Shown one piece after another: positions 12,527 through 51,900 of a stretch of 64,000 nucleotides of DNA; position 1 is the first letter of the stretch, and every line of letters starts with the position of its first letter. Under the pieces are notes generated by a model. It saw nothing but the letters and a program-made list of their open reading frames with translations. It was not told the DNA's origin and made no database searches. Location of the stretch: contig ONPF01000014.1 of the NCBI GenBank assembly GCA_900319635.1, positions 21,009 to 85,008 of the forward strand. The letters run 5' to 3'. Origin of the DNA: an uncultured Eubacteriales bacterium (lineage in GTDB: Bacteria > Bacillota > Clostridia > Oscillospirales > Oscillospiraceae). The translations under genes were made by a program, and so were the position numbers.

Positions 12527-12582
12527 GTCGATTGTTCCTTTCTTAACCTGATATCTGCTAGAAAACTTGGGTTCTTTTCGGC

Positions 12583-12815
12583 CAGAATTGCGTCATGCTT
12601 CCTTGAAGCCCTTGATCATATATTTCCATCAAGCTCTGCTGCTTCGCCACGCTTGGTAAAATTCTGACTTGAAATCTTATACTAATCTCTAATAGAAATC
12701 AGACAATCTTTGCGGCTGGAATTGCGCCATGCTTCGTTGCTTCCCTTGACCATATATCTCCATTATGCTCTGCGGGAAGCGCCTCGCCTGTCACAATTCT
12801 GCCTCGGAAATCTTT
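12583..12815. mobile_element. MITE-like repeat, tandem/nested copies B1 (diverged core, 12583..12678) and B2 (12679..12815)
   Basis: B2 begins with the terminal repeat atactaatctctaatagaaa. It carries the longest version of the core and is 100% identical to copy A over 62 nt and to copy C over 72 nt. B1 is a diverged core, roughly three-quarters identical by eye. Confidence 0.6.
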
Positions 12816-12899
12816 CTTGTCTTCTGTACTGCCGGGAGGGGCAAGCCCCTCCCCTACGGCGGCGACAGGGATGTACGCGTATTTTGCAGCAGGCCCAGC

Positions 12900-22062: not shown

Positions 22063-24300
22063 ATGAACGAAACGCCGAAAAAAGAGAATATCCCGCTGGA
22101 TCCGGACAAGCTCTACGCGGCGCTGGAGGAGAAGATCAAGAACTCCGGCCACCCCATGGATTTGGGACGCATCCGCGCGGCCTATGAGATGGCAAAGCTT
22201 GCCCACGCCGGGCAGCTGCGCAAGGACGGCTGCTCCCCCTATGTGACCCACTGTGTGGCCGCGGCGGACATCTCCGTGGATCTGGGTCTGGACGAGGATT
22301 CCATCTGCGCGGCGCTGCTGCACGACGTGATCGAGGACACCCCCCTCACCCACGCGGACATCGCCCACCAGTTCGGCGCACCGGTGGCGGACATTGTGGA
22401 GGGCGTCACCAAGCTCACCCGGGTGCAGTACACCAGCAAGGAAGACGAGCAGATGGAGAACCTGCGCAAGATGCTCATGGCCATGGCCAAGGACATCCGC
22501 GTGATCCTCATCAAGATCGCCGATAGGCTCCACAACATGCGCACCATGGACTACCAGACGCCGGAGAAGCAGCGCACCAAGTCGCTGGAGACCATGGAGA
22601 TCTACGCCCCCATCGCCCACCGCCTGGGCATGCAGCAGGCCAAGTGGGAGCTGGAGGATCTGTCGCTGCGCTATCTGGATCCCACCGGCTACCGGGAGAT
22701 CACCGAAGCCCTGAACGCCCGCATGCCGGAGCTGGAGGCCTTCATGTCCTCTGTGGAGGAGAAGATCCAGACCCGCCTCAAGAGCGAGGGGATCAAGGCC
22801 TCCATCTTCTCCCGCATCAAGCATGTCTACAGCATCTACCGGAAGATGTACGCCCAGAAGCTGGACATCAACGGCATTTTCGACCTCTGCGCCTTCCGGG
22901 TCATCGTGGACTCCCTGCCCGACTGCTATAACGTTCTGGGCGTCATTCACGATATGTTCAAGCCCGTGCCCGGGCGCTTCAAGGACTATATCTCCACCCC
23001 CAAGCCCAACATGTACCAGAGCCTGCACACCACCGTCATCGGCACGGAGGGCATCCCCTTTGAGGTGCAGATCCGCACCTGGGAGATGCACCACACCGCC
23101 GAATACGGCATCGCCGCCCACTGGAAGTACAAGATGGACGGCAGCAGCAGCGTGGTCAGGGACGGGGATGAGGAGAAATTCGCCTGGGTGCGCCGCCTGC
23201 TGGAGGATCAGCAGGAGTCCGACGCCCAGGACTTCTTCCACGATCTGAAGATCGATATGTTCGCCGACGAGGTCTTCGTCTTCTCCCCCAAGGGGGACGT
23301 CATTAACCTGCCCGCCGGCGCCACGCCCATCGACTTTGCCTACAGCATCCACTCGGATGTGGGCAACCACATGGTGGGCGCCAAGGTCAACGGCCGCATC
23401 GTGACCTTTGACTATGTGCTGCAAAACGGCGACATTGTGGAGATCCGCACCTCCAAATCCTCCCCCGGCCCCAGCCGGGACTGGCTGAGCATCGTCAAAA
23501 GCGGCTCCGCCCGCACCAAGATCAAGCAGTGGTACAAGAAGGAGCGGCGGGAGGAGAACGTACTCCGGGGTCTGGAGATGCTGGAGGACGAGCTCAAGCA
23601 CAACGAGCTGAGCCTGGAGGACGTGCAGGGCGAGGAGATCATGACGCCGGTGCTCAAGCGTCTCAGCTACGCCACGCCCGAGGACATGTACGCCGCCATC
23701 GGCTACGGCGGCGTCACCGCCGCCCGGGTGGCCAACCGCCTGCGGGACGAACAGAAGAGCGCCATGGCGGAAAAGAAGTCCGTGCTGGATCGGGTCTCCG
23801 CCGCCGCCGAACGGCGGGAGGAGCGTGCCAAAAAAGAGGGCAAGGCTGTCCACGGCATCCTGGTGGAGGGGCTGGACAACTGTCTGGTCAAATTCTCCCG
23901 CTGCTGCACCCCCGTGCCGGGGGACGAGATCATCGGCTTCATCACCCGGGGCCAGGGCGTTTCCATCCACCGGAAGGACTGCGAAAATTATCTGCGCCGC
24001 ACCCGGGATCAGGTGGACGCCGGCCGCTGGATCCATGTCTCCTGGGCCAGTCAGATCACCGACAGCTATGTGACCATCCTCACCATCGCTGCCAAGGATC
24101 GCTCGGGCCTGGTCATGGATATTGCCACGGTGCTGAACTCGCTGAACGCCAAGGTGCGCAATCTCTCCGCCCGGGATAACGCCGGGCTTGCGCTGGTGAA
24201 CATCTCGCTGGAGGTCAGGAGCACCGCCGAGCTGCGGCAGATCATGAACCGGCTCGCGTCTGTTCCCAGCGTCACCGAGGTATCGCGCAGCGGGAAATAG
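22063..24300 (+). CDS. relA: Bifunctional (p)ppGpp synthetase/hydrolase, RelA/SpoT family
   Basis: HD domain (HDVIEDT), synthetase motifs (YQSLHTTV, EVQIRT), plus TGS and ACT regions; 745 aa. Confidence 0.95.
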   Translation: MNETPKKENIPLDPDKLYAALEEKIKNSGHPMDLGRIRAAYEMAKLAHAGQLRKDGCSPYVTHCVAAADISVDLGLDEDSICAALLHDVIEDTPLTHADIAHQFGAPVADIVEGVTKLTRVQYTSKEDEQMENLRKMLMAMAKDIRVILIKIADRLHNMRTMDYQTPEKQRTKSLETMEIYAPIAHRLGMQQAKWELEDLSLRYLDPTGYREITEALNARMPELEAFMSSVEEKIQTRLKSEGIKASIFSRIKHVYSIYRKMYAQKLDINGIFDLCAFRVIVDSLPDCYNVLGVIHDMFKPVPGRFKDYISTPKPNMYQSLHTTVIGTEGIPFEVQIRTWEMHHTAEYGIAAHWKYKMDGSSSVVRDGDEEKFAWVRRLLEDQQESDAQDFFHDLKIDMFADEVFVFSPKGDVINLPAGATPIDFAYSIHSDVGNHMVGAKVNGRIVTFDYVLQNGDIVEIRTSKSSPGPSRDWLSIVKSGSARTKIKQWYKKERREENVLRGLEMLEDELKHNELSLEDVQGEEIMTPVLKRLSYATPEDMYAAIGYGGVTAARVANRLRDEQKSAMAEKKSVLDRVSAAAERREERAKKEGKAVHGILVEGLDNCLVKFSRCCTPVPGDEIIGFITRGQGVSIHRKDCENYLRRTRDQVDAGRWIHVSWASQITDSYVTILTIAAKDRSGLVMDIATVLNSLNAKVRNLSARDNAGLALVNISLEVRSTAELRQIMNRLASVPSVTEVSRSGK

Positions 24301-24329
24301 TTTTGAGTTTTGAAAATACGGGAGCTTAT

Positions 24330-26332: not shown

Positions 26333-27358
26333 ATGAACGTACTCGTCACCGGCGGGGCCGGTTATATCGGAAGCCACACCTGCGTGGAGCTGCTGGAGCA
26401 GGACATCGGCGTGGTGGTCATCGACAATCTGGTGAACTCCAGCGCCAAGGCCATTGAGCGGGTGGAGCAGATCACCGGCAAGCACGTGGATTTCTACCAG
26501 GAGGACGTGCGCAACCGCGCCGCCCTGGATCGGATCTTTGAAAAGCACAAGATCGACTGCACCATCCACTTCGCCGGTCTCAAGGCCGTGGGCGAATCGG
26601 TGGTCATGCCGCTGGAATACTACGACAACAACCTCTTCTCCACCATCACCCTCTGTGAGGCCATGCGGGATCACGGGGTACACGACATCGTGTTCTCCTC
26701 CTCCGCCACGGTCTACAACGGCTCGAACCAGATGCCTCTGAAGGAAACCGCCGTCACCGGCGGCTGCACCAACCCCTACGGCTGGACGAAATACATGTCC
26801 GAGCAGATCCTGCGGGACACCGCCAAGGCGGTGAACGATTTCTCCGTCTCCCTGCTGCGCTACTTTAACCCCATCGGCGCCCACCGCAGCGGCCTCATCG
26901 GCGAAGATCCCCGGGGCATCCCCAACAATCTGATGCCCTTTATCGCCCAGGTGGCCGTGGGCCGCCGAGATCACCTGAACATTTTCGGCGACGACTATGA
27001 CACCCCCGACGGCACCTGCATCCGGGACTATATCCACGTCACCGATCTGGCCCGGGGCCATGTGGCCGCCATCGACTACATGCGCCATCACCGGGGCGAG
27101 AACGTCTTCAACCTGGGCACCGGCACCGGCTACAGCGTGCTGGATATGGTGAAGACCTTCGAGAAGGTCAACGGCATCAAGATCCCCTATGAGATCGCCC
27201 CCCGCCGGGCCGGCGACCTGCCCCGGCTCTATTCCAACCCCGACAAGAGTGCCCAGCTTCTGGGCTGGAAGGCTCAGTACACCCTGGAGGACATGTGCCG
27301 GGACACCTGGAGCTGGCAGTCCAAGAACCCCATGGGCTACGGAACAAGTGAAGATTGA
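26333..27358 (+). CDS. galE: UDP-glucose 4-epimerase
   Basis: VLVTGGAGYIGSH, YGWTK and DYIHV motifs. The ATG at 26333 follows GGAGG. Confidence 0.95.
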   Translation: MNVLVTGGAGYIGSHTCVELLEQDIGVVVIDNLVNSSAKAIERVEQITGKHVDFYQEDVRNRAALDRIFEKHKIDCTIHFAGLKAVGESVVMPLEYYDNNLFSTITLCEAMRDHGVHDIVFSSSATVYNGSNQMPLKETAVTGGCTNPYGWTKYMSEQILRDTAKAVNDFSVSLLRYFNPIGAHRSGLIGEDPRGIPNNLMPFIAQVAVGRRDHLNIFGDDYDTPDGTCIRDYIHVTDLARGHVAAIDYMRHHRGENVFNLGTGTGYSVLDMVKTFEKVNGIKIPYEIAPRRAGDLPRLYSNPDKSAQLLGWKAQYTLEDMCRDTWSWQSKNPMGYGTSED

Positions 27359-27375
27359 ACAGTGAACAGTGATAA
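27349..27375 (+). repeat. TGA heptad array overlapping the galE stop
   Basis: TGA at 27349, 27356 (the galE stop), 27363 and 27370, then TAA at 27373. The period is exactly 7 nt. Confidence 0.8.
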
Positions 27376-27410
27376 AACGCAGGCGTCAGTAAAACCGACG
27401 CCTGCGTTTT
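27374..27410. terminator. Bidirectional intrinsic terminator (galE / degV convergent pair)
   Basis: 14-bp stem aaaacgcaggcgtc/gacgcctgcgtttt. Confidence 0.85.
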
Positions 27411-27452
27411 CGTATACGATCTTCTTTTCTTCCTCAGCTTTTTAATTCCGAA

Positions 27453-32721: not shown

Positions 32722-34716
32722 ATGGCAAAGACGAACGAACAGTACGGAAACGACTCGATCTCCCAGCTGAAGGGCGCGGATCGGGTGCGCAAGCGCCCCG
32801 GCGTCATCTTCGGCTCCGACGGGCTGGACGGCTGCGAGCACGCGGTATTCGAGATCCTCTCCAACTCCATCGACGAGGCGCGGGAGGGCCACGGCAATCT
32901 CATCACCCTCAGCTACTATGAGGACAAGTCCATCGAGGTGGAGGACTTCGGACGGGGCTGCCCCCTGGACTGGAACCCCACGGAGAAGCGCTTCAACTGG
33001 GAGCTGGTGTTCTGCGAGCTCTACGCCGGCGGCAAGTATAAAAACGACGACGGCGGCGATTACGAGTACTCCCTGGGGCTCAACGGTCTGGGCTCCTGCG
33101 CCACCCAGTACGCCTCCGAGTACATGGACGTGACGGTGTGGCGGGACGGGAACAAGTACAGCCTCCATTTCAAGAAGGGCAAGGTGCAGGGCAAGAAGGG
33201 CCAGGAGCTTCTCATCGAGCCCGCCGACCGGAAGAAGACCGGCACCACCATCCGCTGGCGGCCGGATCTGGAGGTCTTTACGGACATCAACATCCCCGAG
33301 GACTATTTTGACGACGTGCTGCACCGCCAGGCGGTGGTGAACGCGGGCGTCACCTTCCGGCTGCGCATCCAGCGGGGCAAGCAGTTTGAGACCCGGGACT
33401 ACTGCTACCCCAACGGCATCATGGACTATGTGACGGAGCTGGCCGGCGAGGGCCCCCTCACCGCGCCCCACTTCGTCTCCACCGAGCGGAAGGGCCGGGA
33501 TCGGGAGGACAAGCCCGAGTACAAGGTGAAGATCTCCGCCGCCTTCTGCTTCTCCAACAAGACCACAGCCCTGGAGTACTACCACAACTCCTCGTGGCTT
33601 GAAAACGGCGGCGCGCCGGACAAGGCGGTGAAGAGCGCCTTCCTCTCCGCCATCGACGCCTATCTGAAGCAGCAGGGCAAGTACCAGAAGAACGAGAGCT
33701 CCATCAAGTTTCAGGACATTCAGGACTGTCTGGTGCTGGTGACGAACTGCTTCTCCACCCAGACCTCCTACGAAAACCAGACCAAGAAGGCCATCAACAA
33801 CAAGTTCATCCAGCAGGCCATGACGGAATTTCTCAAGGCGCAGCTGGAGGTCTATTTCATTGAGAATAAGCCCGAGGCCACCCGCATCTCCGACCAGGTG
33901 CTCATCAACAAGCGCAGCCGGGAGACCGCCGAGAAGGCCCGCCAGGGCATGAAAAAGAAGCTCTCCGGCTCCATCGACATCGCAAACCGGGTGCAGAAGT
34001 TTGTGGACTGCCGCAGCAGGGACCCGGAGAAGCGGGAGATCTACATCGTGGAGGGCGACTCGGCTCTGGGCTCGGTGAAGCTCTCGCGAGACGCGGAATA
34101 CCAGGGCATCATGCCCGTGCGGGGCAAGATCCTCAACTGCCTGAAGGCCGACTACGTCCGCATCTTCAAGAGCGACGTCATCACCGATCTGATGAAGGTG
34201 CTGGGCTGCGGCGTGGAGGTCAGGGACAAGCACACCAAGGAGCTGCAGAGCTTCGATCTGAATAACCTGCGCTGGAGCAAGGTGGTCATCTGCACCGACG
34301 CGGACGTGGACGGCTATCATATCCGCACGCTGATCCTCACCATGCTCTACCGGCTGGTGCCGACCCTCATCCGGGAGGGCTATGTGTACATCGCGGAGTC
34401 GCCGCTGTACGAGATCAACAGCAAAGGCAAGACCTGGTTTGCCTACTCGGAGAAGGAAAAGGCGGAGATCGTGGAGAGCCTCAAGGGCGCCAAGGCCACC
34501 ATCAGCCGCAGCAAGGGTCTGGGCGAGAACGACCCGGACATGATGTGGATGACCACCATGAATCCGGAGACCCGGCGGCTTATCAAGGTCATGCCGGAGG
34601 ACGCGGAGCGCATGGCCCAGGTCTTCGACCTGCTGCTGGGAGACGATCTGGAGGGGCGGAAGAACCACATCTCCGAATTCGGCGCCCAGTATTTGGACCT
34701 GGCGGATCTGTCGTAA
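32722..34716 (+). CDS. parE: Type IIA topoisomerase subunit B (ParE/GyrB paralogue)
   Basis: GHKL N-terminus (ILSNSIDEA, GLNGLG) and Toprim (EGDSA, DADVDGYHI). Start at the ATG at 32722. The sequence diverges from canonical GyrB, so the symbol is tentative. Confidence 0.8.
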   Translation: MAKTNEQYGNDSISQLKGADRVRKRPGVIFGSDGLDGCEHAVFEILSNSIDEAREGHGNLITLSYYEDKSIEVEDFGRGCPLDWNPTEKRFNWELVFCELYAGGKYKNDDGGDYEYSLGLNGLGSCATQYASEYMDVTVWRDGNKYSLHFKKGKVQGKKGQELLIEPADRKKTGTTIRWRPDLEVFTDINIPEDYFDDVLHRQAVVNAGVTFRLRIQRGKQFETRDYCYPNGIMDYVTELAGEGPLTAPHFVSTERKGRDREDKPEYKVKISAAFCFSNKTTALEYYHNSSWLENGGAPDKAVKSAFLSAIDAYLKQQGKYQKNESSIKFQDIQDCLVLVTNCFSTQTSYENQTKKAINNKFIQQAMTEFLKAQLEVYFIENKPEATRISDQVLINKRSRETAEKARQGMKKKLSGSIDIANRVQKFVDCRSRDPEKREIYIVEGDSALGSVKLSRDAEYQGIMPVRGKILNCLKADYVRIFKSDVITDLMKVLGCGVEVRDKHTKELQSFDLNNLRWSKVVICTDADVDGYHIRTLILTMLYRLVPTLIREGYVYIAESPLYEINSKGKTWFAYSEKEKAEIVESLKGAKATISRSKGLGENDPDMMWMTTMNPETRRLIKVMPEDAERMAQVFDLLLGDDLEGRKNHISEFGAQYLDLADLS

Positions 34717-34756
34717 TCAATCCAATCCGTGCCGCAAAGCGGCACACCGCAATTAT

Positions 34757-34786
34757 TCATTTTTCAAACTTCATTTTTCACTTTCA
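34757..34786 (-). repeat. TGA heptad array on the minus strand in the parE-parC spacer
   Basis: Plus-strand tca at 34757, 34764, 34771 and 34778 (7-nt period), and at 34784. Confidence 0.7.
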
Positions 34787-34801
34787 CACGGAGTGTGACC
34801 T

Positions 34802-37045: not shown

Positions 37046-37927
37046 ATGCAAGACAAAAAGACGGGCAAAGCCCTCTGGCGGCAAATCCGAAAGTACGGCC
37101 TGATCGTGCTGGGCTCCTTCATTTACGGCTTCAGCTTTCAGGCCTTCCTGTTTCCCAACAGCATCGTGTCCGGAGGCGTCACCGGTATCGCCATGATCCT
37201 CAACGCCTTTACCCACTGGCCCATCGGCTTGATGGTGATCGCCATGAACGTGCCCCTCTTCCTCGTCGCCTGGCGGCACTTCGGGCTGGACTTTCTCATC
37301 AGCTCCCTTGTTGGCATGGCCCTGTCCTCCATCTTCGTGGATCTCTTTGCTCTGACGGGCCTGGTGCTGACGAGCGACCCCCTGCTGGCCAGTGTCATCG
37401 GCGGCGTCATCAAGGGCGTGGGTCTGGGCATGATCTATTACTACGGCGCCACCACCGGCGGCATCGACATCGTGGTGAAGCTCCTGCGCACGCGCTTCAT
37501 GCAGCTCAACTTCGGCACCATCATGCTGATCCTGGACGCGGCCATCATTCTGGCCTACGCGCTGATCATCAAGAACTACGACAGCGCCATGTATTCCGTC
37601 ATCACCATGTTCGTGGTCACCAAGGTCATCGACTTGGTGCTTTACGGGCTGGACATGTCCTGCGTCTGCCACATCATCAGCGAGAAGAGCGAGGAGCTGA
37701 TCCGGGAGCTGACCAGCGGCCACGTGCACCGGGGCGTCACCATCCTGGAGGGCGAGGGCGCCTATTCCCGCAAGCAGAAGCATGTGATCCTCTGCGTCAT
37801 CAAGCGCAGCCAGATCCCCGAGCTGCGCCGCACCATCCGGGATCTGGACGAAAACGCCTTCGTCATCATCACGGACGCCAAAAACGTCTTCGGCAGAGGC
37901 TTTGAAAACATAGCGGAGGTAAGGTGA
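37046..37927 (+). CDS. YitT-family membrane protein (DUF2179 C-terminus)
   Basis: N-terminal TM bundle with GGVTG/GGIDIV motifs and a soluble C-terminal domain. Confidence 0.85.
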   Translation: MQDKKTGKALWRQIRKYGLIVLGSFIYGFSFQAFLFPNSIVSGGVTGIAMILNAFTHWPIGLMVIAMNVPLFLVAWRHFGLDFLISSLVGMALSSIFVDLFALTGLVLTSDPLLASVIGGVIKGVGLGMIYYYGATTGGIDIVVKLLRTRFMQLNFGTIMLILDAAIILAYALIIKNYDSAMYSVITMFVVTKVIDLVLYGLDMSCVCHIISEKSEELIRELTSGHVHRGVTILEGEGAYSRKQKHVILCVIKRSQIPELRRTIRDLDENAFVIITDAKNVFGRGFENIAEVR

Positions 37928-39120: not shown

Positions 39121-39121
39121 G

Positions 39122-39156
39122 AAGAGACCCGGAATGCAAAAAATTCCGGGTCTCTT
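39122..39156. terminator. Terminator hairpin between convergent genes
   Basis: 14-bp stem aagagacccggaat/attccgggtctctt. Confidence 0.8.
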
Positions 39157-39160
39157 TCTC

Positions 39161-39191
39161 TCAAAACTCAAAACTGAAAACTCAAAACTCA
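39161..39191 (-). repeat. TGA heptad array (TGAGTTT units) overlapping the tmcAL stop
   Basis: Plus-strand tca at 39161, 39168, 39182 (the stop) and 39189. The 39175 unit reads TGA on the plus strand instead. Confidence 0.75.
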
Positions 39192-40497: not shown

Positions 40498-41694
40498 ATG
40501 AAAATTCTCGTCATCAACGCAGGCAGCTCTTCCCTGAAGTATCAGCTCATTGATATGGAGACCGAGGCCGTGCTGGCCAAGGGTCTCTGCGAGCGCATCG
40601 GCATCGACGGCCACCTGAAGCACACCCCGCTGGTGGAGGGCAAGGCGGTCTTCAACGAGGACGTGGCCATGCCCACCCACTCCGAGGCCATTGCCGCCGT
40701 CATCGACAAGCTCACCAGCCCCCAGTACGGCGTGGTCAACTCCATGAAGGAGATCGACGCGGTGGGTCACCGGGTCGTCCACGGCGGGGAGAAGTTCGCC
40801 TCCTCCGTGCGCATCACCGACGATGTGATGAAGGCCATCGAGGAGTGCATCCCCTTCGCGCCGCTGCACAACCCCGCCAACATCACCGGCATCAAGGCCT
40901 GCCAGGCCGTCATGGGCGACGTGCCCATGGTCGCCGTGTTCGACACCGCCTTCCATCAGACCATGCCCGGCAAGGCCTTCATGTACGCCCTGCCCTATCA
41001 GTACTACCTCTCCAACGGCGTGCGGCGCTACGGCTTCCACGGCACCAGCCACCGCTACGTCTCCGCCCGCTGCGCGGAGCTCATGGGCAAACCCATCGAG
41101 GAGCTGAAGATCGTCTCCTGCCACATGGGCAACGGCTCCTCCCTGGCCGCCATCGACCACGGCAAGTGCGTGGACACCTCCATGGGCTTCACCCCGCTGG
41201 TGGGTCTGCCCATGGGCACCCGCTGCGGCGATCTGGACGCGGGCGTCATCCAGTACCTGATGAACAAGTACGGCTACAGCATTGACGAGATGCTGAACAT
41301 CCTGAACAAGAAGTCCGGCGTGCTGGGCGTCTCCGGCGTCTCTTCCGACTTCCGCGATCTGGACAAGGCCGCCGCCGAGGGCAACGAGCGGGCCAAGCTC
41401 GCCCTGGACATGTTCCACTACTGGGTGGCCAAGGTGGCCGGCTCCTACGTCGCCGCCATGAACGGCGTGGACGCCATCGTCTACACCGCCGGTGTGGGCG
41501 AGAACAGCAGCGCCACCCGCGCCGCCATCTCCGAGTACTTCGGCTATCTGGGCGTCAAGATCGACCCCGTGGCCAATTCCAAGCGGGGCGAGGATATCGA
41601 GATCAGCACCCCCGACTCCAAGGTGAAGGTCTTCGTGATCCCCACCAACGAGGAGCTGGTCATCGCCCGCGACACCCGCGACATCGTTGCGTAG
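40498..41694 (+). CDS. ackA: Acetate kinase
   Basis: MKILVINAGSSSLKYQL, HRVVHGG, FHGTSHRY, GTRCGDLD, IPTNEE. Confidence 0.95.
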   Translation: MKILVINAGSSSLKYQLIDMETEAVLAKGLCERIGIDGHLKHTPLVEGKAVFNEDVAMPTHSEAIAAVIDKLTSPQYGVVNSMKEIDAVGHRVVHGGEKFASSVRITDDVMKAIEECIPFAPLHNPANITGIKACQAVMGDVPMVAVFDTAFHQTMPGKAFMYALPYQYYLSNGVRRYGFHGTSHRYVSARCAELMGKPIEELKIVSCHMGNGSSLAAIDHGKCVDTSMGFTPLVGLPMGTRCGDLDAGVIQYLMNKYGYSIDEMLNILNKKSGVLGVSGVSSDFRDLDKAAAEGNERAKLALDMFHYWVAKVAGSYVAAMNGVDAIVYTAGVGENSSATRAAISEYFGYLGVKIDPVANSKRGEDIEISTPDSKVKVFVIPTNEELVIARDTRDIVA

Positions 41695-41797
41695 TACTTA
41701 GTGCTTAGTAATTAGTACATAGGGGACGGAGGAAGCGTTTTCGCATCCTTCGTCCCCTAACTACTACGCACTAAGCACTACGCACTAAGCACTACGC
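41692..41797. terminator. Composite element: five TAG heptads, a 17-bp-arm hairpin (41721..41758), then six mirror-image TAG heptads on the minus strand
   Basis: Plus-strand TAG at 41692 (the ackA stop), 41699, 41706, 41713 and 41720. Plus-strand cta at 41757, 41764, 41771, 41778, 41785 and 41792. The dut stop is at 41800..41802. Confidence 0.8.
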
Positions 41798-43315: not shown

Positions 43316-43327
43316 ACCTGCGAACGC

Positions 43328-43361
43328 GCCCCCTCTGGCCTTTGTCAGAGGGGGCTTTTTG
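43328..43361 (+). terminator. Intrinsic terminator
   Basis: gccccctctg..cagagggggc followed by ttttt. Confidence 0.85.
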
Positions 43362-43381
43362 CGCTCCGGGGACGAGAAGAA

Positions 43382-43398
43382 TGAAGAATGAAAAATGA
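43382..43398 (+). repeat. TGA heptad array (TGAAGAA TGAAAAA TGA)
   Basis: TGA at 43382, 43389 and 43396. Confidence 0.7.
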
Positions 43399-43404
43399 AT
43401 CATT

Positions 43405-44190
43405 ATGGTGTCGCCTCCGGCGACGGATTGAGATTCGGGGAGCGTGGGGGAAACGTTCGTTCGCTCCGTAGGGGCGACCCTTGTGGTCGCCCGTTTCCCC
43501 CGTAGGGCCGAGCATTGCTCGGCCGCTTGTCGGACACGGGCGCAGGTCGGCGGGCGATTCGTGAATCGCCCCTACGGGGGAACCTCCGTCCGCGCCGTAG
43601 GGGCGGGTAATACCCGCCCGCTTGTCCGTTCGCTGCGTAGGGGCCGGCGCCCTCGACGGCCCGTTTGTCGGACATGGGCGCAGGTCGCGGACACGGCTTT
43701 GTGCTTCCCCCAGCGGGGGAAGCTCCCGCGTAGCGGGTGATGAGGGAGAAGCCTGCCGCAGCGGTTGAGATGGTCTATAAGGGAAGCCTCTCCCTCATCC
43801 GTCAGCCGCCTTCCGTGAGACGGCGGCCGCCACCTTCCCCCGCTGGGGGAAGGACTGAGGCGGGCCGCTTGTCGGACGCCGGCGCATGTCGGCGGAGCGA
43901 TTCGGCTATCGCCCCTACGGGGAACCCCTTCCTTCAGCGGCGGGCGTTACACGCCGCTGACACCTCCGCCTTGCGGTGCCCGAAAAACGCTGCGCACATT
44001 CGTTTGCTTGTGTTTTTCGACCGCTGCGGAAATTCCGGCTTCGCTTCATCTGCCACTGGCAGCGCGAAGCCGCAATTCCCCCGGAGGGGGAGGCAAGGCG
44101 CACTGGCCTTGCAATAACACGGGGTTTTGGGTTTATCTGCATATTGACAGCTCCCGCAGCCGAGAGGCGGCGGGAGCTGCTTTTTTTACT
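43405..44190. repeat. Hairpin forest: about 20 consecutive GC-rich stem-loops with internal ~62-nt repeat units
   Basis: Example stems: 43472..43492, 43506..43524, 43553..43570, 43601..43619, 43703..43723, 43739..43799, 43833..43853, 43934..43960, 43981..44019, 44093..44112, 44148..44187. The units 43523..43584 and 43865..43926 are related. Confidence 0.75.
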
Positions 44191-45274
44191 TCTTTACAAA
44201 GGTGACAGTTCCCACAGACTCCTTGTCCCAGTCGAGGAAGGTAACGGTGAGGGTGTCGCCCGCTTCTCCCTGTCCCTGGCTGTACGCAGCGAAGAAGCTG
44301 CCGTCCTCCCGAAGTCCCAGGCCGCCATTGCCATGAAACTCCATCCCCTCCACGCGCAGGGTCATGAAATCTGCCTCGGCAAAGTCGTCGGTGGGCACTC
44401 CCGTGAGACGCAGGCTGATCCCGAGGGGCGTCCGTTCCAGCCGAAGCTCGCCCAGCTCCAGTCCGGGTATTGCCTTCGGATCCTCCGGCGCATAGACGCC
44501 GAGGAGTGTACCCACTCCCTCCGACATGGTGAGGGGGATCTCCAGACGCTGGATAGCCGCCGGATCATATTCCAGATTCAGATTGCCCGGCTCGACAATT
44601 TGCGCGTTGATCTGGCAGACTGTCTCGATCACCGGAGCGGAAACACTCTTGGTTGCCTCCAGATACAGCACCATCTCTCTGTCAGAGAGATACACCGCAT
44701 GCTGTCCAAAACTTTCAACGCCCAAGTTCTCCCACGGGAGACTCGCCCCCACAAAGAGGAGCTTGCGCTCCTGCCCGAGGGCATATTCCTCCAGTGTGCC
44801 TTCTCCTTCAAGCCCGATGCTCTGCAGCTCAGTGAAGGGATCCTCACTGCTGTCAGCCAGGACATAGCCCTCGTCCGCCGTGACGCTCAGGGTCAGCAGA
44901 ATGGTGTTCTCATCACAGTAGCTCTCGGTTATCCGCGCCTGGAAGCCCTCGCCCTCGGCTGTTTCCTGCCGGGTCTCGATCACCGCCTGCGCCTCCTGGG
45001 GCATCTCACCACGGTTGGGGTTTGCGTACAGCTCCCGAAGACCGAACAGGTTCAGCGCGTAGGCCGTCGCCGCCAGCGCCAGCACGAGACAGGCCGCGAG
45101 AGCCAGGGCGATCCCTCGACGTACCATGACAGGGTGGTTTTCCAAATGATTCTTCTTCATTTTCTTGTTCCTTTCCGGGATCCGGCTTCGCTCAGCAGCC
45201 CGGAACTCCATCGCCTCCGCGATCAGCTCCTCGTCGATTCCGGTCAGGGCATTGGATACCAGCTTGCGATTCAT
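44186..45274 (-). CDS. Putative single-pass anti-sigma factor with large extracytoplasmic domain
   Basis: Its start shares an ATGA overlap with the ECF sigma gene's stop. It has one TM segment (IALALAACLVLALAATAYAL). No family was recognised for the C-terminal ~270 aa. Confidence 0.65.
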   Translation of the reverse strand: MNRKLVSNALTGIDEELIAEAMEFRAAERSRIPERNKKMKKNHLENHPVMVRRGIALALAACLVLALAATAYALNLFGLRELYANPNRGEMPQEAQAVIETRQETAEGEGFQARITESYCDENTILLTLSVTADEGYVLADSSEDPFTELQSIGLEGEGTLEEYALGQERKLLFVGASLPWENLGVESFGQHAVYLSDREMVLYLEATKSVSAPVIETVCQINAQIVEPGNLNLEYDPAAIQRLEIPLTMSEGVGTLLGVYAPEDPKAIPGLELGELRLERTPLGISLRLTGVPTDDFAEADFMTLRVEGMEFHGNGGLGLREDGSFFAAYSQGQGEAGDTLTVTFLDWDKESVGTVTFVKK

Positions 45275-45861
45275 GCCATCATCCCCTCCTTTTTCAAATA
45301 ATCCTGCAAACGTTGGCGCAAGCGGAAAAGACGCACAGACAGGGCGTGGGGCTTTCTCCCCGTGGCAGACGCGATCTCGGAGATGGAGTCCCCAAACCAA
45401 TAGCGGCGCAGGAACAGCACCCGATCATCAGGCTCCAAGCTGCGGAGAAATTGGTTTACATAACCCGTCAATTCTCTTGCCTCGTACTCGGTCTCCACAT
45501 TGGAGAGCGCCGGCACGGTCTCCTCCAGCTCGTCCAGCGCCACGTCATAAAAGGTGTTGCGCTTTTTTGCGCTGTTGGAGCGATAGCGGTTGATGGCCAG
45601 ATTCCGGGCGATTTTGCAAGCGTAGGCGCCCAGGTGTTCCGGCTGCCCGGGCGGAATGCTGTTCCAGACCTGCAGGCAGGTGTCGCTGGCGCACTCTTCC
45701 GCATCCTGCCGATCCCGCAGAACATGGTCGGTCACCTGGCGGATCTGTCTGCCGTATTTTCGATTCAGTTCCTCGATCGCCTCTTCCGAGCGTTGCCGGA
45801 ACAGGGCGACGATCTCTTGATCTTTCAAAACTGTACCTTCTTTCCCCGGGAAGTGATGCAT
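45271..45861 (-). CDS. ECF-type RNA polymerase sigma-70 family factor
   Basis: Region 2 (DAEECASDTCLQVW..YACKIARNLAINRYR) and region 4 (ISEIASATGRKPHALSVRLFRLRQRL). Confidence 0.85.
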   Translation of the reverse strand: MHHFPGKEGTVLKDQEIVALFRQRSEEAIEELNRKYGRQIRQVTDHVLRDRQDAEECASDTCLQVWNSIPPGQPEHLGAYACKIARNLAINRYRSNSAKKRNTFYDVALDELEETVPALSNVETEYEARELTGYVNQFLRSLEPDDRVLFLRRYWFGDSISEIASATGRKPHALSVRLFRLRQRLQDYLKKEGMMA

Positions 45862-45909: not shown

Positions 45910-46024
45910 ATACTAATACCTGATAGAAAGCTTTAGAAAGATTTCCGAGGCAGAATTGTGACAGGCGAGGCGCTTCCCGCAGAGCATAATGGAGATATAT
46001 GGTCAATCTATTAGGTGTTAGTAT
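45910..46024. mobile_element. MITE-like repeat, copy C (115 bp, inverted relative to copy A)
   Basis: Ends atactaatacctgatagaaa / tctattaggtgttagtat. Its 72-nt interior is identical to the reverse complement of 12746..12817. Confidence 0.6.
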
Positions 46025-46079: not shown

Positions 46080-48146
46080 TTACGCCTCGGTCTCGCCCTC
46101 GGGGGCGATGCCGGTGGCGGTGCCGTCGGCAGAGACCTCATAGACCAGAGCGTCCTCGCGGGCCTCTTCCTTCTCCTCCTCCACGGGAGCCTTCTCCACG
46201 GGGGCGGGCTCGCTCAGCGCGCGGATGGACAGGGAGATCTTGTGCTTCTCCTGGTCGATGGCGGTGATCTTGGCGTCCACCACGTCGCCCACGGTCAGCA
46301 CGTCACCGGGCTTGCCGATGCGGCGGTTGGCGATCTGGCTGATGTGGATCAGGCCGTCCACGCCGGGCAGAACTTCCGCAAAGGCGCCGAAGTCCATGAG
46401 CTTGACGATGGTGACGGGGGCAATGTCGCCCACCTGGTACTTGTTGGTGAACTGGGTCCAGGGGTTGCCGTTGGGATCCTTGTAGCCCAGGGAGATCTTG
46501 CGCTTCTCCCGGTCGAAGTTGATGACGTAGACCTCGATCTCGTCGCCCACGGAGACGACCTCGGAGGGCTGGTGGATGCGGCCCCAGCTCAGCTCGGAGA
46601 CGTGCACCATGCCGTCGATGCCGCCGATGTCCACGAAGGCGCCGTAGCTGGTCAGAGACTTGACCACGCCCTTGTAGTGCTTGCCGATCTCGATGTTGTT
46701 CCAGATGGCCTCGGTGCGCTCGCGGCGCTCGGCCTGGGCCACGCGGCGGATGGAGCCCACCACGCGCTTGCGGGCCTTGTTGACCTCGGTGATCTTGAGA
46801 CGCACGGTCTTCTTCAGCAGCTGGCTCATCTCAGCATCGCGGGGCAGGTCGGTCTGGGAAGCGGGCACGAACACGCGCACGCCCTTGACAGAGACGACCA
46901 CGCCGCCCTTGTTCTCCTCGGTGACAACGCCTTCCATCACGGTGCCGTCTTCCACGGCGGCCTCGACCTCGTTCCAGATCTTGGCGGCGTCCAGACGCTT
47001 CTTGGACAGGGTGACAACGCCGTCCACATCGTTCACGCGAACCACAACGGCCTCCAGGGTGTCGCCGACCTTGACGGCGTCTTCCAGCTTGGTGCCGTCC
47101 TCGGTGAACTCCTCGGTGGGGATGATGCCGGTCTGCTTGGTGCCGAGATCCACGCTGATCTCGGTGCCGGTGATCGCCACGACGGTGCCGCTGACCTTAT
47201 CTCCATTATAGATAGGCTTGAGGCTCTCCTCCAGCATTTCGTCGAAGGTCATTTCCTTCTCAACTGCGGGCTCCTCTACCTTGATTTCTTCATTTTTGAT
47301 TTCGTCCATTTTGTTTCTTACCTCCTTAATGATCCACGCGGGGGTGGACGCTCCGGCCGTCAGCCCGACGGTATCAGCGCTCCTGAGCCTGTCCAGCTCC
47401 AACTCCGCCGGACCTTCGATGAACTGGACATGGGCGCAGTGCTCGCCGCAGATCTGGGCGAGATGGACGCTGTTTGCGCTGTGCCTGCCGCCGATGACGA
47501 CCATCGCATCGCACGAAGCGGCAATTTTCGCCGCCTCTTCCTGCCGCGTAAACGTAGCAAGGCATATTGTATCATGGATTTTCGCATTTGTACATCTTTT
47601 TTTTAGGATTTCGCAACATTCGGTAAAATTACTGCGCGTCTGGGTGGTTTGCACCACGACAGTTATCGGTTTCTCCAAAAGATCCGGGTTTTCTTCCAGA
47701 AAAAGGCTGGTTTCCGCCGGATTTTCCAGCACCCGATGCTCTTTGCACCAGCCGCAGATGGCCTCCACCTCCGGGTGACGGCGCATGCCGATGATGAGCA
47801 CGAAGCGCCCCTCCCGGGCGGCGCGGGAGACGATGGTGTGGATGGCCTTGACCTTGGGGCAGGTGGCGTCGGTGACCTGGGCGCCGGCCTTCTCCAGGGC
47901 GGCATAGACCTCCGGCGCGGCCCCGTGGGCGCGGATCAGCACCGCCTCCCCCGGCCGCAGCTCCTCCGGTGTATTCACCACGCGCATGCCCTTTGCCTCC
48001 AGGGCGCGCACCACGTCCTCGTTGTGGATGAGCTGCCCCAGGCTTGCGCAGTGTCCCTTCTCCCGTATGAGCCCCTCGGCCAGCTCCACGGAGCGCTGCA
48101 CCCCGAAGCAGAAGCCCGCGCTCTCGGCTACGATCAGCTCTCTCAC
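46080..48146 (-). CDS. ispH: Bifunctional 4-hydroxy-3-methylbut-2-enyl diphosphate reductase / ribosomal protein S1 fusion
   Basis: N-terminal IspH (GFCFGVQRSV, HNEDVV, three Cys ligands), then four S1 OB-fold repeats (..G.V..L..FGAFV..G..GL.H.S..). Confidence 0.9.
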   Translation of the reverse strand: MRELIVAESAGFCFGVQRSVELAEGLIREKGHCASLGQLIHNEDVVRALEAKGMRVVNTPEELRPGEAVLIRAHGAAPEVYAALEKAGAQVTDATCPKVKAIHTIVSRAAREGRFVLIIGMRRHPEVEAICGWCKEHRVLENPAETSLFLEENPDLLEKPITVVVQTTQTRSNFTECCEILKKRCTNAKIHDTICLATFTRQEEAAKIAASCDAMVVIGGRHSANSVHLAQICGEHCAHVQFIEGPAELELDRLRSADTVGLTAGASTPAWIIKEVRNKMDEIKNEEIKVEEPAVEKEMTFDEMLEESLKPIYNGDKVSGTVVAITGTEISVDLGTKQTGIIPTEEFTEDGTKLEDAVKVGDTLEAVVVRVNDVDGVVTLSKKRLDAAKIWNEVEAAVEDGTVMEGVVTEENKGGVVVSVKGVRVFVPASQTDLPRDAEMSQLLKKTVRLKITEVNKARKRVVGSIRRVAQAERRERTEAIWNNIEIGKHYKGVVKSLTSYGAFVDIGGIDGMVHVSELSWGRIHQPSEVVSVGDEIEVYVINFDREKRKISLGYKDPNGNPWTQFTNKYQVGDIAPVTIVKLMDFGAFAEVLPGVDGLIHISQIANRRIGKPGDVLTVGDVVDAKITAIDQEKHKISLSIRALSEPAPVEKAPVEEEKEEAREDALVYEVSADGTATGIAPEGETEA

Positions 48147-48823
48147 GCCTGCGCCTCCATCCGCTCCCGGATGATGCGGCAGAGGAGCCGGAAGCTCTCC
48201 TCAAAGTCGATCTCCGTGGTGTCCACCAGCACCGCGTCCTCCGCCCGGCGCAGGGGGGCGACCAACCGGTTCATGTCCTGCTCGTCCCGCTGGACGATCT
48301 CCCGCAGCACCTCTTCAAAGCTCTGCTCCACGCCCTTGGCCGCGAGCTCCTTCATCCGGCGCTCCGCCCGGGCCTCGGCGCTGGCGGTGAGATAGATCTT
48401 CAGCGGCGCGTCGGGCAGCACCACGGTGCCGATGTCCCGGCCGTCCATGATGACCCGGTGCTCCCGGGCCAGACGGCGCTGGGTCTCCATCAGATAGTCC
48501 CGCACGGCGGCGTGAGCCGACACATCGGAGGCGCAGAGGGAGATCTCCGGCAGGCGGATTTCCCGGGAAACGTCCTCGCCGTTTAGGAACATGCGCTGCT
48601 CCCCGTCCTCGTAGCGGAGCGCAATGTCCAGCTCGGGCAGGATCGCCGCCACCTGGGCCTCGTCTTTCCGGTCAATCCCCCGACGCAGGGCGGCCAGACC
48701 CACCGTGCGGTAGATGGCGCCGGTGTCCACATACAAAAAGCCCAGCTCCTGGGCGCAGCGGCGCGCCAGACTGCTCTTGCCCGCCCCGGAGGGGCCGTCG
48801 ATGGCGACTGCGAAATTGTTCAT
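48143..48823 (-). CDS. cmk: Cytidylate kinase
   Basis: IAIDGPSGAGKSS P-loop and DTGAIYR. It has a 4-nt overlap with ispH. Confidence 0.95.
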   Translation of the reverse strand: MNNFAVAIDGPSGAGKSSLARRCAQELGFLYVDTGAIYRTVGLAALRRGIDRKDEAQVAAILPELDIALRYEDGEQRMFLNGEDVSREIRLPEISLCASDVSAHAAVRDYLMETQRRLAREHRVIMDGRDIGTVVLPDAPLKIYLTASAEARAERRMKELAAKGVEQSFEEVLREIVQRDEQDMNRLVAPLRRAEDAVLVDTTEIDFEESFRLLCRIIRERMEAQA

Positions 48824-48920: not shown

Positions 48921-48960
48921 TTTGCCTGTATGGTGCCTGTATGGATTTATTCCTCTGATG

Positions 48961-51900
48961 TCAGTAAATCTCCACTTCCTCGCCCTTGAGGTAGCGCTGC
49001 AGGCGGGTCAGATCCTTGTTGTTGACCTTGCCGTCGCCGTTCACGTCCAGCGCGGCCTCCACAACCTCCGTCTCCTCGCCCTTGAGATAGCGCTGCAGGC
49101 GGGTCACATCCTTGTTGTTGACCTTTCCGTCGCCGTTGATGTCGCCGGGGATGTGGTCGGGCTCCAGCCCGGTGACCACCTTCTGATTCACGTCGATCCG
49201 CAGCAGGCCGCCCAGGGTGCCGCCGCTGTACTCCGCATAAGTTCCATTCTCCGTGCGGGTGCCGTTGCAATAGGCGTCCAGCAGGATCGGGTTCTCCGTG
49301 AGATCCAGGCTCGCCAGGCTGTTGCCGTAGCAGGAGAGGGTCTTCAGCTCTTCAAAGTACTTCAGGCCGCTTAAGCTCCCGATGGACTTGTTGGACACGT
49401 CCATGCTCGTCACCGCCTGGCGCTCCGCCCGGGAGAGCCAGCCGTCGCCGTCCAGGTCGATCTGCTCCAGGATGTAGGCGCGGAAGTTTGCGTCCGGGAA
49501 GGTGGTCTCGTCGATGGGCAGGAGCTTTTCAAAGACGGCGTAGAGCGCGTTGTCCACGAAAATGCCGATGTCCATCTCCGGGTTGCCGCTGTCCTCGCCG
49601 GGGCTGCCGCCGTAGGCGTCCTCCCAGTGGTCGAAGCGGTAGCCTTCCGCCGCCCGGGCACGGACGGTGATCCAGGTGCCGTAGGGGTAGCTGCCGGACT
49701 GCTCAAGCTGGAAGTCCCCGTCGTTGAAATCCACCAGGCCGCCCACGTCCTCGTTGCCCTCCAGATCCTTGACGCCCAGAATGATCGTCGGATTCCTGTC
49801 GGTGATCTGCACGTCCTGGGCGGGATCGCCGGTTTCGGGGTCGATAACGGTGCCGCCGCTGACGGTGCCGTTCTCCGGCATGCGGATGAAGTGGGTGTCG
49901 GGATAGCTGATGGAGCCGGCCTCAACGGCCTGGATGTTCCCATAGGCGGTCATGCCGCCGTTCTGGATGTTCAGCGCGCCGGTGCAGATGAGACCGATGT
50001 CGTTTCGGGAGCTGGCCCAGAGGGTGCCGCCCACCAGCCGCACCTCGCCGCCGCCCTGGAGGCCGGCCTCGCCGGCAGCGGTGAACAGATCGCCCGCCAC
50101 GATCACGGTGCCGCGGCAGTCCACGCCGATGCCCTCATCGGTCTCGACCCGCAGGGAGCCCAGGAAGACCCGGAGGGTGCCGCCCACGCCCACGCCCACC
50201 TGGGTGGTGTTGTGGACCTTCACATTGCCGGACACGCTCAGGTCGCCGGCGGCGTAAATGCCGTGGAGCCAGGCGTAGATCACAAAGTCCCCGTCCAGGG
50301 TCAGATTGCCGCCGCAGCTGATGCCGCCCCGGAGACTGTCGTCCAGAAGCACGCCGCTGCCGGTGACGGTCAGATCGCCGCTGGCGGTGATGCTGAAGAG
50401 CCTGGTGAGGTCGGGATCGACGGTGTCCTGGCCCAAAACGCCGATGCTGCCGGTGTAGCCCTCCAGATGCAGCGTGCAGGTATCCGGGTCATAGCTGGCC
50501 TTGCCGCCCAGGACGGGAATGTCGTCCTTGTTGTCCGCGTTGACCTGGACGCTGCCCAGATAGACGTCATAGCGCTCCGGGCCGAAGCGGTAGATCATGG
50601 TGCCGATGCGGCCGGAGGGGGTGTGGAACTCCAGATCGCCGTAGATATTGCCGCAGCGAAGCACCCGGGCCGTGCCGTCGTCATAGAAGTCGATGTAAAT
50701 ATCGTTGCTCCCGTCGTCGTCCAGATCCCGCTCAAGCCTTGTGCCCGCCTCATGCTCGCCGAAGAGCCAGAGCGCGTCTTTGGCGTTCATCTCGTGGACG
50801 CCGTCCTCCAGCTCGAAGATATAGGTCTCCTGGGGCAGCAGCTCGCCGGTGACACTCACGTCCTTTGCGGGCATGGCGAAGCCCCAGGTGAGCTCCGTGA
50901 GCTGTTTGAGCTCCACATCGTCGCTGGTCACATTGGCCAGATACACGCCCTCCGGCTGGGTGGTGATGTCAGCGCGCACCACCACATAGTCCCCCGGACG
51001 GGCGCTGGTGACCTCCACATCGTTCAGGCGGAACTTGACGTAGCTGCCGCTGAGCTGGTAGCTCTCGGTGGGGATCTCGATGCTCTCGGTGTGGAGCCAG
51101 AGAGAGCCGTCGGTCGTAAGGTACTCCGTGGTGAAGGACAGGCCGTTGCGCAGCGTCACCTGGGTGTCCGCGGTGAGCGCGTAGCCCTGGTCCGCGTGCA
51201 TGCGGACAGTGGCGTAATAGACGCAGCCGGGCTGGAAGCTGGCAGTCACGCTGTCCTTGGCGCCGGTGGCCTGGTCGGCGCCGTTCTTCCACAGGGTGTA
51301 CATCTCGCCCACATGCGGCGTGTAGAAGGTGGCCCAGAGTCTGCTCTCGGCCTCGAAGCTGCTGCCCAGCTCCGGCAGATCCAGGGACAGCTCCACGCTG
51401 TCGATCTCCGTCTCCGGCAGCGTGATAAAGTTGGAGGTGAGGACCAGATTGCCGTCACTCCGTTTGTAGGGGGTAACCTCCCCGAATCTGCTGTCCATGC
51501 CGGTGCCGTCGCTGAAGAGGAGGAAGGCGCCGGGATTGTCGCCAAAGCACCAGCCGGGATTCGGAGCCAGGATGATCTCCACGCAGTACTGCTCACCGGG
51601 GACGAAGCTGCTCGGCGTCCCGACCCCGTGCTCCTGGAGCTCATACCAGCGGGCGCTCACCACCGTGTACTTGGAGGTGTTGACCGCGTTGAGCGTGACG
51701 GTGGCGGGGGCCAGGCCGCTGTAATTCCCGCCGGGGGCAGGAAGCTGCACGTTCAGATCCACCGTGGAGCAGGTCACGGGCTCGTCCGCAAGGGCGAAGA
51801 AGGCATGGACATATACGTCGCCGGGCTCATCCGCCACATAGAACTCCAGACTGTCGGTGATATCCTCGCCGACCTGCTCGGAATCGCGTGCTGCGGTCAT

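Follow-up and report, generated by a model that had tools for sequence, protein, structure and literature searches.

The spacer between ackA and dut

The acetate kinase gene ackA and the dUTPase gene dut lie convergently on a 64,000-nucleotide stretch of DNA from an uncultured Eubacteriales bacterium of the family Oscillospiraceae (GenBank assembly GCA_900319635.1, contig ONPF01000014.1, positions 21,009 to 85,008 of the forward strand), referred to here as the window. The spacer between the two genes holds a GC-rich hairpin flanked by two arrays of TAG triplets with a 7-nt period, one on each strand. These arrays belong to an already described, poorly understood class of repeat. The two gene products match the Pfam families Acetate_kinase (6.9e-155) and dUTPase (1.2e-10) in a search of the window proteins; the gene map as a whole was built from open reading frames (ORFs) and the G+C content of third codon positions (GC3), with Pfam matches for most genes.

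On the plus strand TAG occurs five times at exactly 7-nt spacing, starting at 41692, 41699, 41706, 41713 and 41720. The first of these triplets is the stop codon of ackA, and the last forms the base of the core hairpin. Beyond the hairpin, CTA occurs on the same strand at 41757, 41764, 41771, 41778, 41785 and 41792, giving six TAG triplets on the minus strand with starts at 41794, 41787, 41780, 41773, 41766 and 41759. The stop codon of dut is itself a TGA (41802–41800, minus strand), 8 nt ahead of the first TAG of the dut-side array. Read on the plus strand, the ackA half of the spacer runs gcg TAGTACT TAGTGCT TAGTAAT TAGTACA TAG, then GGGACGGAGGAAGCG, the loop tttt and CGCATCCTTCGTCCCC; the dut half continues TA ACTACTA CGCACTA AGCACTA CGCACTA AGCACTA CGC cc TCA. 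On this strand the dut-side array also forms a perfect 14-nt repeat, ACTACGCACTAAGC, of 2.5 copies with 100% match in Tandem Repeats Finder (TRF), which counts 4.6 copies at period 7. Both arrays, and the 17-bp hairpin between them, had been noticed in a reading of the sequence made without database searches (the original prediction), and every coordinate given there checks out.

Because the arrays form an inverted pair, the whole ackA–dut spacer is one long imperfect palindrome. An inverted-repeat search finds arms of 50 nt that are 80% complementary, and the expectation that the partly complementary arrays can lengthen the stem is borne out. The core hairpin alone has a predicted folding energy of −31.0 kcal/mol on the plus strand and −26.9 kcal/mol on the minus strand, while the full spacer is predicted to fold as a single hairpin of −62.1 kcal/mol on the plus strand (z −9.95) and −69.4 kcal/mol on the minus strand (z −8.15). 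The structure had also been called the ackA/dut terminator. A GC-rich stem-loop exists, but no U-tract lies 3′ of the core stem on either strand, the plus strand continuing CCCCUAACUACUACG and the minus strand CCCCUAUGUACUAAU, and the hairpin is absent from the terminator-scan output for the window. The label of terminator is therefore an assumption. A search of the whole window against Rfam with gathering thresholds gave no family match.

The arrays stand out clearly from the background. When the window was searched for at least four stop codons at a fixed spacing, with periods from 4 to 14, such runs were found at period 7 only. There are four of them (27349 and 41692 on the plus strand, 34780 and 41794 on the minus strand). 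In a shuffle control run on the intergenic DNA of the window, 0.02 were expected and none of 300 dinucleotide shuffles attained four; stop runs at periods 4, 5, 8, 10 and 11 match expectation. The pattern TAGTNNNTAGTNNNTAGT was matched five times in the window, against 0.00 in 100 shuffles. TRF reports six arrays of period 7, two of period 14 and none of period 8, and all TRF arrays with at least three copies are intergenic. The stop-codon arrays are thus confirmed as real and far beyond chance, and those between ackA and dut are shown to exemplify an excess of tandem repeats with period 7 that extends across the species.

Arrays in strains, relatives and other genomes

Ten syntenic contigs of the same species (L161–L170), with 95–97% nucleotide identity to the window, were reached through a dut homologue (P0001, 96% identity). 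A strain with different synteny (L173) was reached through a Lin0512-family protein. Exact-protein look-ups with the ackA, dut and engB-like products of the window returned no match and those with ScpB short contigs only; a metagenome scan with ackA peaked at 88% identity and yielded no contigs of the same species.

Eight of the ten sister contigs (L161–L168) keep the same palindrome between ackA and dut, with differing numbers of units. On the ackA side there are five units in the window and in L168, seven in L166 and L167, and nine in L161–L165, the steps in length consisting of the 14-mer TAGTTCT TAGTAAT. On the dut side six units are found in most strains and eight in L167. In the long allele, as seen in L161, one unit carries CAG in place of TAG (CAGTTCT). 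Independent assemblies agree on every allele of the site, and L161–L165 are identical. Two other arrays of the window (Table 1) also vary: that at 34757 is 14 nt shorter in L161, and that at 43375 has one additional TGAATCA unit (+7 nt) in L161, L162, L164 and L165. Copy number is thereby shown to vary from strain to strain, each step being 7 or 14 nt. The array at the end of a HIGH_NTase1-family gene ('NTase') is identical in every strain fetched, including its broken TCA unit, even where the adjoining hairpin has been replaced. At 4570–4932 of L162 this array and its flank occur twice with a run of N between them, probably a scaffolding artefact at a repeat rather than a real duplication.

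The hairpin between the arrays varies in another manner. In all eight contigs the 36-nt core of the palindrome, an imperfect stem plus its loop, is the exact reverse complement of that of the window, and the arrays on either side have the same orientation as in the window. The core thus shows a flip-flop polymorphism of the kind that recombination between inverted arms, or a switch of template from one arm to the other, is expected to produce. In the two remaining sister contigs, L169 and L170, the spacer has been taken over by an inverted pair of elements resembling repetitive extragenic palindromes (REP-like elements; GTAGGGGCCGGCGCCCTCGACGGCCC) around another hairpin, which shows that this position can also hold a palindromic element of another kind. 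The end of ackA differs accordingly between alleles, reading ...GTC GGC TGA (Gly, TGA) in L169, L170 and most relatives and ...GTT GCG TAG (Ala, TAG) in the array allele (window 41686–41694).

Within the Oscillospiraceae, the source of the window belongs to the Candidatus Limivicinus group. Beyond the species the arrays are scarce. Among 160 loci of related taxa, covering about 2 Mb, the region downstream of ackA is not conserved and no TAGT-type array was found. Close genomes, 364 kb in total, contain no run of at least four stops at period 7, and a single one was seen in close metagenome contigs totalling 430 kb. The nearest syntenic genome, a congener (L001), has about 82% aligned nucleotide identity, rising to 88–91% in the best-conserved blocks; the arrays are absent at three orthologous spacers of this genome, where other terminators are found instead. 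A different heptamer array, CAGTGGY repeated five times, lies immediately after ackA in L003. The arrays are therefore shown to be species-level and lacking in congeners.

Across about 82 kb of the species some ten heptamer arrays were counted (Table 1). The array at 27349 continues into the terminator hairpin (27375–27411) of the galE-like gene, and that at the NTase gene spans the stop codon (39184–39182) and adjoins a hairpin at 39121–39156. The array at 34757 follows a hairpin (34727–34747) and precedes the ribosome-binding site of a topoisomerase A-subunit gene, placing it in a 5′ untranslated region (UTR). The array at 43375 lies downstream of the complete U-tract terminator of a hydrolase gene (43328–43355). 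Three further arrays were found within 9 kb in L173. At four gene ends (ackA, galE, NTase and mnmG) the real stop codon shares the phase of the array. Among the 49 genes of the window only ackA and relA end in TAGT, and each begins a heptamer array at its stop.

Table 1. Heptamer arrays and associated elements in the window and, where indicated, in strain L173
Feature	Position	Strand	Sequence or remarks
ackA-side heptamer array	41692..41722	+	TAGTACT TAGTGCT TAGTAAT TAGTACA TAG; TRF period 7, 4.4 copies
dut-side heptamer array	41757..41797	-	GCG TAGTGCT TAGTGCG TAGTGCT TAGTGCG TAGTAGT TAG
Core GC-rich hairpin	41720..41759	.	17 pairs, one A.A mismatch, loop TTTT
Imperfect palindrome (both arrays and hairpin)	41689..41797	.	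occupies the complete ackA–dut spacer
Array at galE-like epimerase gene	27349..27376	+	TGAAGAT TGAACAG TGAACAG TGATAAA; spans the stop (27356)
Array at NTase gene	39157..39191	-	TGAGTTT TGAGTTT TCAGTTT TGAGTTT TGAGAGA; one broken unit (TCA)
Array before topoisomerase A-subunit gene	34757..34790	+	TTCATTT TTCAAAC TTCATTT TTCACTT; TGA x4 on - strand
Array after hydrolase gene	43375..43402	+	AGAAGAA TGAAGAA TGAAAAA TGAATCA; precedes small hairpin 43409-43425
Short array at relA/spoT gene	24298..24318	+	TAGTTTT GAGTTTT GAAAATA; begins at the stop, upstream of next gene start
L173 array	sbcC-like gene end		TAG + (TTTTGAG)4; then terminator
L173 array	mnmG end		CAGTGAA units
L173 array	mnmA end		(GAGTTCA)4; no stop on sense strand
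REP-like elements	43468, 43597, 43637	+	conserved head CGTAGGGG(C), then variable GC-rich hairpin
REP-like elements	43575, 43918, 12857	-	as above

Some features recur between arrays. In the roughly 82 kb examined, the unit GAGTTTT is found at the ends of the NTase, sbcC-like and relA genes and CAGTGAA at those of galE and mnmG. Eight of the ten arrays of the species have an NAGT core on their sense strand, directly 5′ of a hairpin, a post hoc observation that is non-significant when unit families are counted once. Within arrays the stop and the following base are nearly invariant and variation sits in unit positions 5–7: mismatches at positions 1 to 7 number 1, 1, 0, 3, 10, 7 and 9, or 1, 1, 0, 0, 5, 3 and 5 without the last units. 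These counts are small, the copies of the 14-mer are not independent and the phase was picked after the data had been viewed.

A module of hairpin plus array is present twice in the window, at 34715–34800 on the plus strand and 43365–43440 on the minus strand, the copies being homologous over about 60 nt. A hairpin and its array can thus disperse as one unit. In each copy CAATCCGT is followed by a small hairpin, whose stem differs between the copies by compensatory changes, by ACACC..AAT.ATTCATT and lastly by an array of TTCATTY heptamers. A further spacer between stop and hairpin, that of a large dockerin-containing protein gene (minus strand) and its terminator hairpin, also holds a short tandem duplication, but with a period other than 7: the 11-nt unit TGCCTGTATGG occurs there twice (48923–48944).

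Arrays of the same type occur on viral contigs (IMG/VR), which were picked by the array pattern. Here TAGTNNN and TTTTGAG arrays often begin right after a stop codon, and arrays are often mirrored around a hairpin or themselves form one (L190, L223, L216, L315 and L321). Viral contigs reached via one array hold 214 arrays of period 7, against 55 of period 8, in 1.04 Mb. Nine such contigs (L190, L216, L223, L268, L296, L299, L314, L315 and L321) range from 25 to 70% GC and carry several different heptamer arrays each, with TAGTGGT, TAGTTTT, TTTTGAG and others as mirrored pairs or alternating with small hairpins in longer tandem structures. Among unselected arrays at other array-rich loci, TGA or TCA is present in 47–48% of distinct units as opposed to about 21% of random heptamers, an excess that A/T-rich composition explains in part.

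Two generalisations were tried and rejected. A universal NAGT core shared with the heptamers of other taxa finds no support, as an AGT or ACT core occurs in 24% of unselected heptamer arrays elsewhere against 21% expected, in addition to the lack of significance within the species by unit family. A general sense-strand bias of stops was likewise rejected: among arrays of other genomes at most 60 nt after an ORF, 22 have stops on the sense strand only and 25 on the antisense strand only, in an orientation test that relied on crude ORF calls at loci chosen for their array pattern.

The window also holds repeats of other kinds. The REP-like elements cluster in a gene-free stretch of 870 nt (43316–44185) and often adjoin heptamer arrays. 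Besides the spacer of L169 and L170, they occur beside the NTase array in L162, L165 and L166 and after mnmA and mnmG in L173. A dispersed repeat of about 100 nt (TACTAACACCTAATAGAAATC...GCTCTGCGGGAAGC) has four intergenic copies (2031–2132, 12545–12646, 12679–12817 and 45935–46006), one inverted pair being 100% identical over 72 nt at a distance of 33 kb. It resembles a small mobile element, or else the terminal part of such an element. The synteny of L173 with the window ends just past the gene preceding the copy at 2031. Two genes of the acetate kinase family lie 40 kb apart, at 1–831 (cut by the window start) and 40498–41694; in sister strains the first is found at the end of a 2-oxoacid dehydrogenase/NAD kinase cluster, beside a sigma-54 activator gene (L171).

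Origin and possible roles of the arrays

With a probability of roughly 60%, the arrays are heptanucleotide simple sequence repeats (SSRs) of unit TAGTNNN that are resized by strand slippage in the spacer between stop codon and hairpin, present at this locus as an inverted pair. Their identity as heptanucleotide SSRs rests on polymorphism in length by whole units, restriction to intergenic DNA, tandem copies in numbers beyond chance, the predominance of period 7 over nearby periods, and sporadic occurrence restricted to the level of the species. Slippage would start an array at the heptamer in which the stop codon of the gene lies. Duplication of this heptamer leaves the protein unchanged, whereas 7 nt duplicated inside the coding sequence or the hairpin would do damage, so that this would be the only harmless site from gene to hairpin; the in-phase stops at ackA, galE, NTase and mnmG argue for such seeding. 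The mirror array would come from template switching or recombination across the hairpin, which would also account for the two orientations of the core among strains. In the RNA the two arrays would pair and so lengthen the stem, which may help to block or shield each of the convergent transcripts at its 3′ end.

Several points weigh against this account. Slippage is deduced from allele lengths, and both the mechanism and the reason for period 7 come from the literature. The confinement of variation mostly to unit positions 5–7 is not what neutral decay of slippage products predicts, subject to the limits of the mismatch counts given above. Slippage alone offers no mechanism by which the same units arise at unrelated loci or a hairpin–array module is duplicated, and these two observations suggest dispersal or a sequence-specific constraint. 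The NAGT core 5′ of hairpins is a further such point, post hoc and by family non-significant though it is, and the census of the species spans only about 82 kb.

The original prediction had favoured a frame-independent stop, in which the arrays are kept to release ribosomes that have read through or shifted frame before they reach and melt the hairpin. Closure is physically true at this locus, where all frames are closed within 21 nt of ackA and 22 nt of dut, as compared with a median of 476 nt for the 49 genes of the window. With a GC content of 62%, the genome has long off-frame ORFs; in ackA, the final 409 nt are open in frame +2. The stop triplet is also the least variable part of the unit, all six unit families of the species (five in the window, with GAGTTCA in L173) have a stop on at least one strand, and TGA or TCA is roughly twofold over expectation in unselected units elsewhere, in part through A/T-rich composition. 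As a purpose, closure is nevertheless quite unlikely. The same median shows that most genes do without it, and not every array provides it: the NTase array, whose broken TCA unit is kept in all strains, leaves frame +1 open for 1420 nt, and the mnmA-end array of L173 has zero sense-strand stops. The arrays at 34757 and 43375 do not follow a translated frame, the L161 allele includes a CAG unit, stops show no sense bias in other genomes (22 versus 25), and the arrays are absent in congeners. A survey of bacteria is reported to have found no selection for fail-safe extra 3′ stops (PMC6764699). Any stop-containing heptamer repeated three times closes all three frames automatically, so that closure looks like a by-product rather than a purpose. 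Selection for the extended stem itself is another distinctly improbable explanation. On this reading a stem of about 50 bp would be a stronger barrier to RNA polymerase or exonucleases than the core of 17 bp, and the spacer would then be a bidirectional terminator or 3′-end protector. Folding supports such an extension, the full spacer being predicted to fold far more stably than the core on both strands, and the additional structure could matter to a core that has no U-tract. Mirrored arrays themselves form hairpins in viral contigs (for example L315, L321 and L216), and cyanobacterial hairpins of a comparable kind have been suggested to stabilise transcripts (PMC2670836). Yet four of the six longer arrays of the window are one-sided and cannot extend a stem. 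The 9-unit allele, with 22 nt unpaired, folds less stably (−55.8 kcal/mol) than the 5-unit allele, and the pairing register is therefore not maintained; mismatches recur every 7 nt at the variable unit positions, without compensatory changes.

It is unlikely, too, that the arrays act as a phased RNA platform, in which UAG, GAG or CAG followed by U and three variable bases recurs every 7 nt 5′ of a stem and binds an oligomeric protein. A candidate binder would modulate hairpin formation or 3′-end stability by analogy with HutP, which recognises XAG-N4, or with proteins of the cold-shock type. HutP binds three XAG triplets at 7-nt spacing, reads the A and G, ignores the spacer and acts directly 5′ of the GC-rich terminator stem of the Bacillus subtilis hut operon; it needs two such sites, 12–17 nt apart across the stem, in a 5′ leader (PMC2425495). 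Here the first kind of site is present on both strands, with UAG five times on the plus strand and six times on the minus strand, and sense-strand AG is repeated every 7 nt, five times or more, after ackA (5), dut (7, its stop included) and NTase (5), as well as at the sbcC-like and mnmA ends of L173 and after ackA in L003. Both stop-less units, TCAGTTT and CAGTTCT, retain XAG. Cold-shock, S1 and CsrA-like proteins have been proposed as binders of the TAACTGA heptamer (PMC4679880). In contrast to HutP sites, the arrays form one contiguous run of 5–9 triplets at the 3′ ends of convergent genes, and no second XAG site lies past the stem, only AAG at 14-nt spacing. Convergent housekeeping genes offer no obvious target for antitermination, the arrays at 34757 and 43375 have no XAG motif, the number of units is not constant (5, 7 or 9), and the AGT core is not enriched in arrays elsewhere. 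The arrays are also absent in the congener, which presumably shares the RNA-binding proteome. No HutP, TRAP or cold-shock family match was obtained among the window proteins scanned, the scans having passed over the ORFs at 37046–37924, 44189–45400, 46083–48146, 48146–48823, 48964–54627 and 54837–56195. A broader form of the idea, that (U/G/C)AGU or UGAA every 7 nt in the sense RNA 5′ of a hairpin is a phased code at gene ends rather than a neutral microsatellite, seems similarly improbable. If true, the code would be read by a HutP/TRAP-type oligomer or by the terminating ribosome and would set the insulation of convergent or adjacent transcription units, and slippage would then give strain-to-strain tuning of that insulation. 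Very improbable, finally, is a mobile palindrome of the REP type or of REP doublets forming hairpins (REPINs), with a hairpin headed TAGGGG and (G/T)TAG heptamers made or moved by a REP-associated tyrosine transposase (RAYT) or similar enzyme. Like REPs and REPINs, the ackA–dut element is an intergenic imperfect palindrome, with what may be a (G)TAG head, the core hairpin beginning TAGGGG on both strands and alternate units reading GTAG, and the site is exchanged in some strains for an inverted REP-like doublet that fills the spacer exactly. The window contains six REP-like elements with the head CGTAGGGGC and a hairpin of variable sequence, such elements also lie beside arrays in L173, L162 and L003, the hairpin–array module is present twice, and the core flip shows the palindrome to be recombinationally active. 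The head of the core is ATAGGGG on the plus strand and TTAGGGG on the minus strand; true REP-like copies in the window begin with CGTAGGGGC. The ackA–dut hairpin has no second copy in the window, the TAGT pattern is found in none of the 160 related-taxa loci, and the hairpins beside other arrays are unrelated in sequence. Neither the many dispersed copies nor the RAYT gene of a REP/REPIN system was found in the window, with no transposase-like gene among the proteins scanned. Changes in length comprise whole heptamers, fitting slippage and not the insertion or excision of an element.

Known heptamer repeats and significance

The original prediction knew of no named feature class for these arrays, which is incorrect, as heptanucleotide SSRs, STRR-type repeats and inverted pairs of arrays have all been described (PMC4692102, PMC4679880, PMC2670836). 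According to Mrazek (2007), as cited in PMC4679880 and PMC4692102, the long SSRs of repeat-rich prokaryotes most often have heptamer units, for which slippage linked to the footprint of the polymerase has been proposed. The long heptamer SSRs of that account resemble the present arrays in being tandem intergenic 7-nt units, with period 7 favoured, a sporadic lineage-specific distribution and a proposed origin by slippage. The arrays described here differ in that they are short (3–9 units), begin at or on a stop codon and abut a hairpin. No literature report of heptamer SSRs in Oscillospiraceae was found.

In Xanthomonas and Nostoc, heptamers of GGGAATC or GGGGA(C/T)T units have been described (Rehm et al. 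2015, PMC4692102). Those of Xanthomonas are 89–93% intergenic, lie on average 28 nt past the upstream ORF and mostly comprise 4 units; 70–75 convergent inverted pairs could fold into stem-loops, closely related species differ in array length, and a function was not found (PMC4692102). These repeats share with the present arrays a unit of conserved and free positions. Their units are G-rich and can form G-quadruplexes, in contrast to the A/T-rich, TAG- or TGA-bearing units described here, which cannot; and several unrelated unit families coexist here, unlike in Xanthomonas and Nostoc.

The short tandemly repeated repetitive (STRR) sequences of cyanobacteria have 7-bp units and form intergenic hairpins, for example between hupS and hupL; their function is unknown, with roles in transcript stability or translational coupling suggested (PMC2670836). 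They differ from the arrays here in phylum and in unit sequence. STRR units include CCCCAGT, TTGGTCA and CAACAGT. TAACTGA repeats occur in marine Beggiatoaceae, cyanobacteria and Bacteroidetes, with 2–6 copies per set (MacGregor 2015, PMC4679880). The TAACTGA unit carries the stop codons TAA and TGA, and is therefore excluded from coding sequence in the forward orientation. As described there, these repeats are likewise stop-bearing, intergenic and lineage-specific, and RNA-binding readers have been proposed for them; they consist of one unit sequence, mostly just upstream of start codons, whereas the present arrays comprise several families that mostly lie between stop codon and hairpin.

The ackA–dut locus extends heptamer repeats, an odd excess noted since 2007, to an uncultured rumen and gut lineage of the Oscillospiraceae. 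Scans for multi-frame stop arrays will pick up such repeats and therefore need a control for tandem-repeat origin. The site also provides a natural allele series, in which one array has 5, 7 or 9 units, the other has 6 or 8, the core occurs in both orientations and a REP-like pair can replace the palindrome, and this series could serve to measure the effects of repeats on termination, 3′-end stability and read-through. If the 4-nt core of the unit reflects a reader protein, the arrays would constitute a new post-transcriptional signal; if there is no such protein, they would be usable as variable-number tandem repeat (VNTR) markers for strains of this species in metagenomes.

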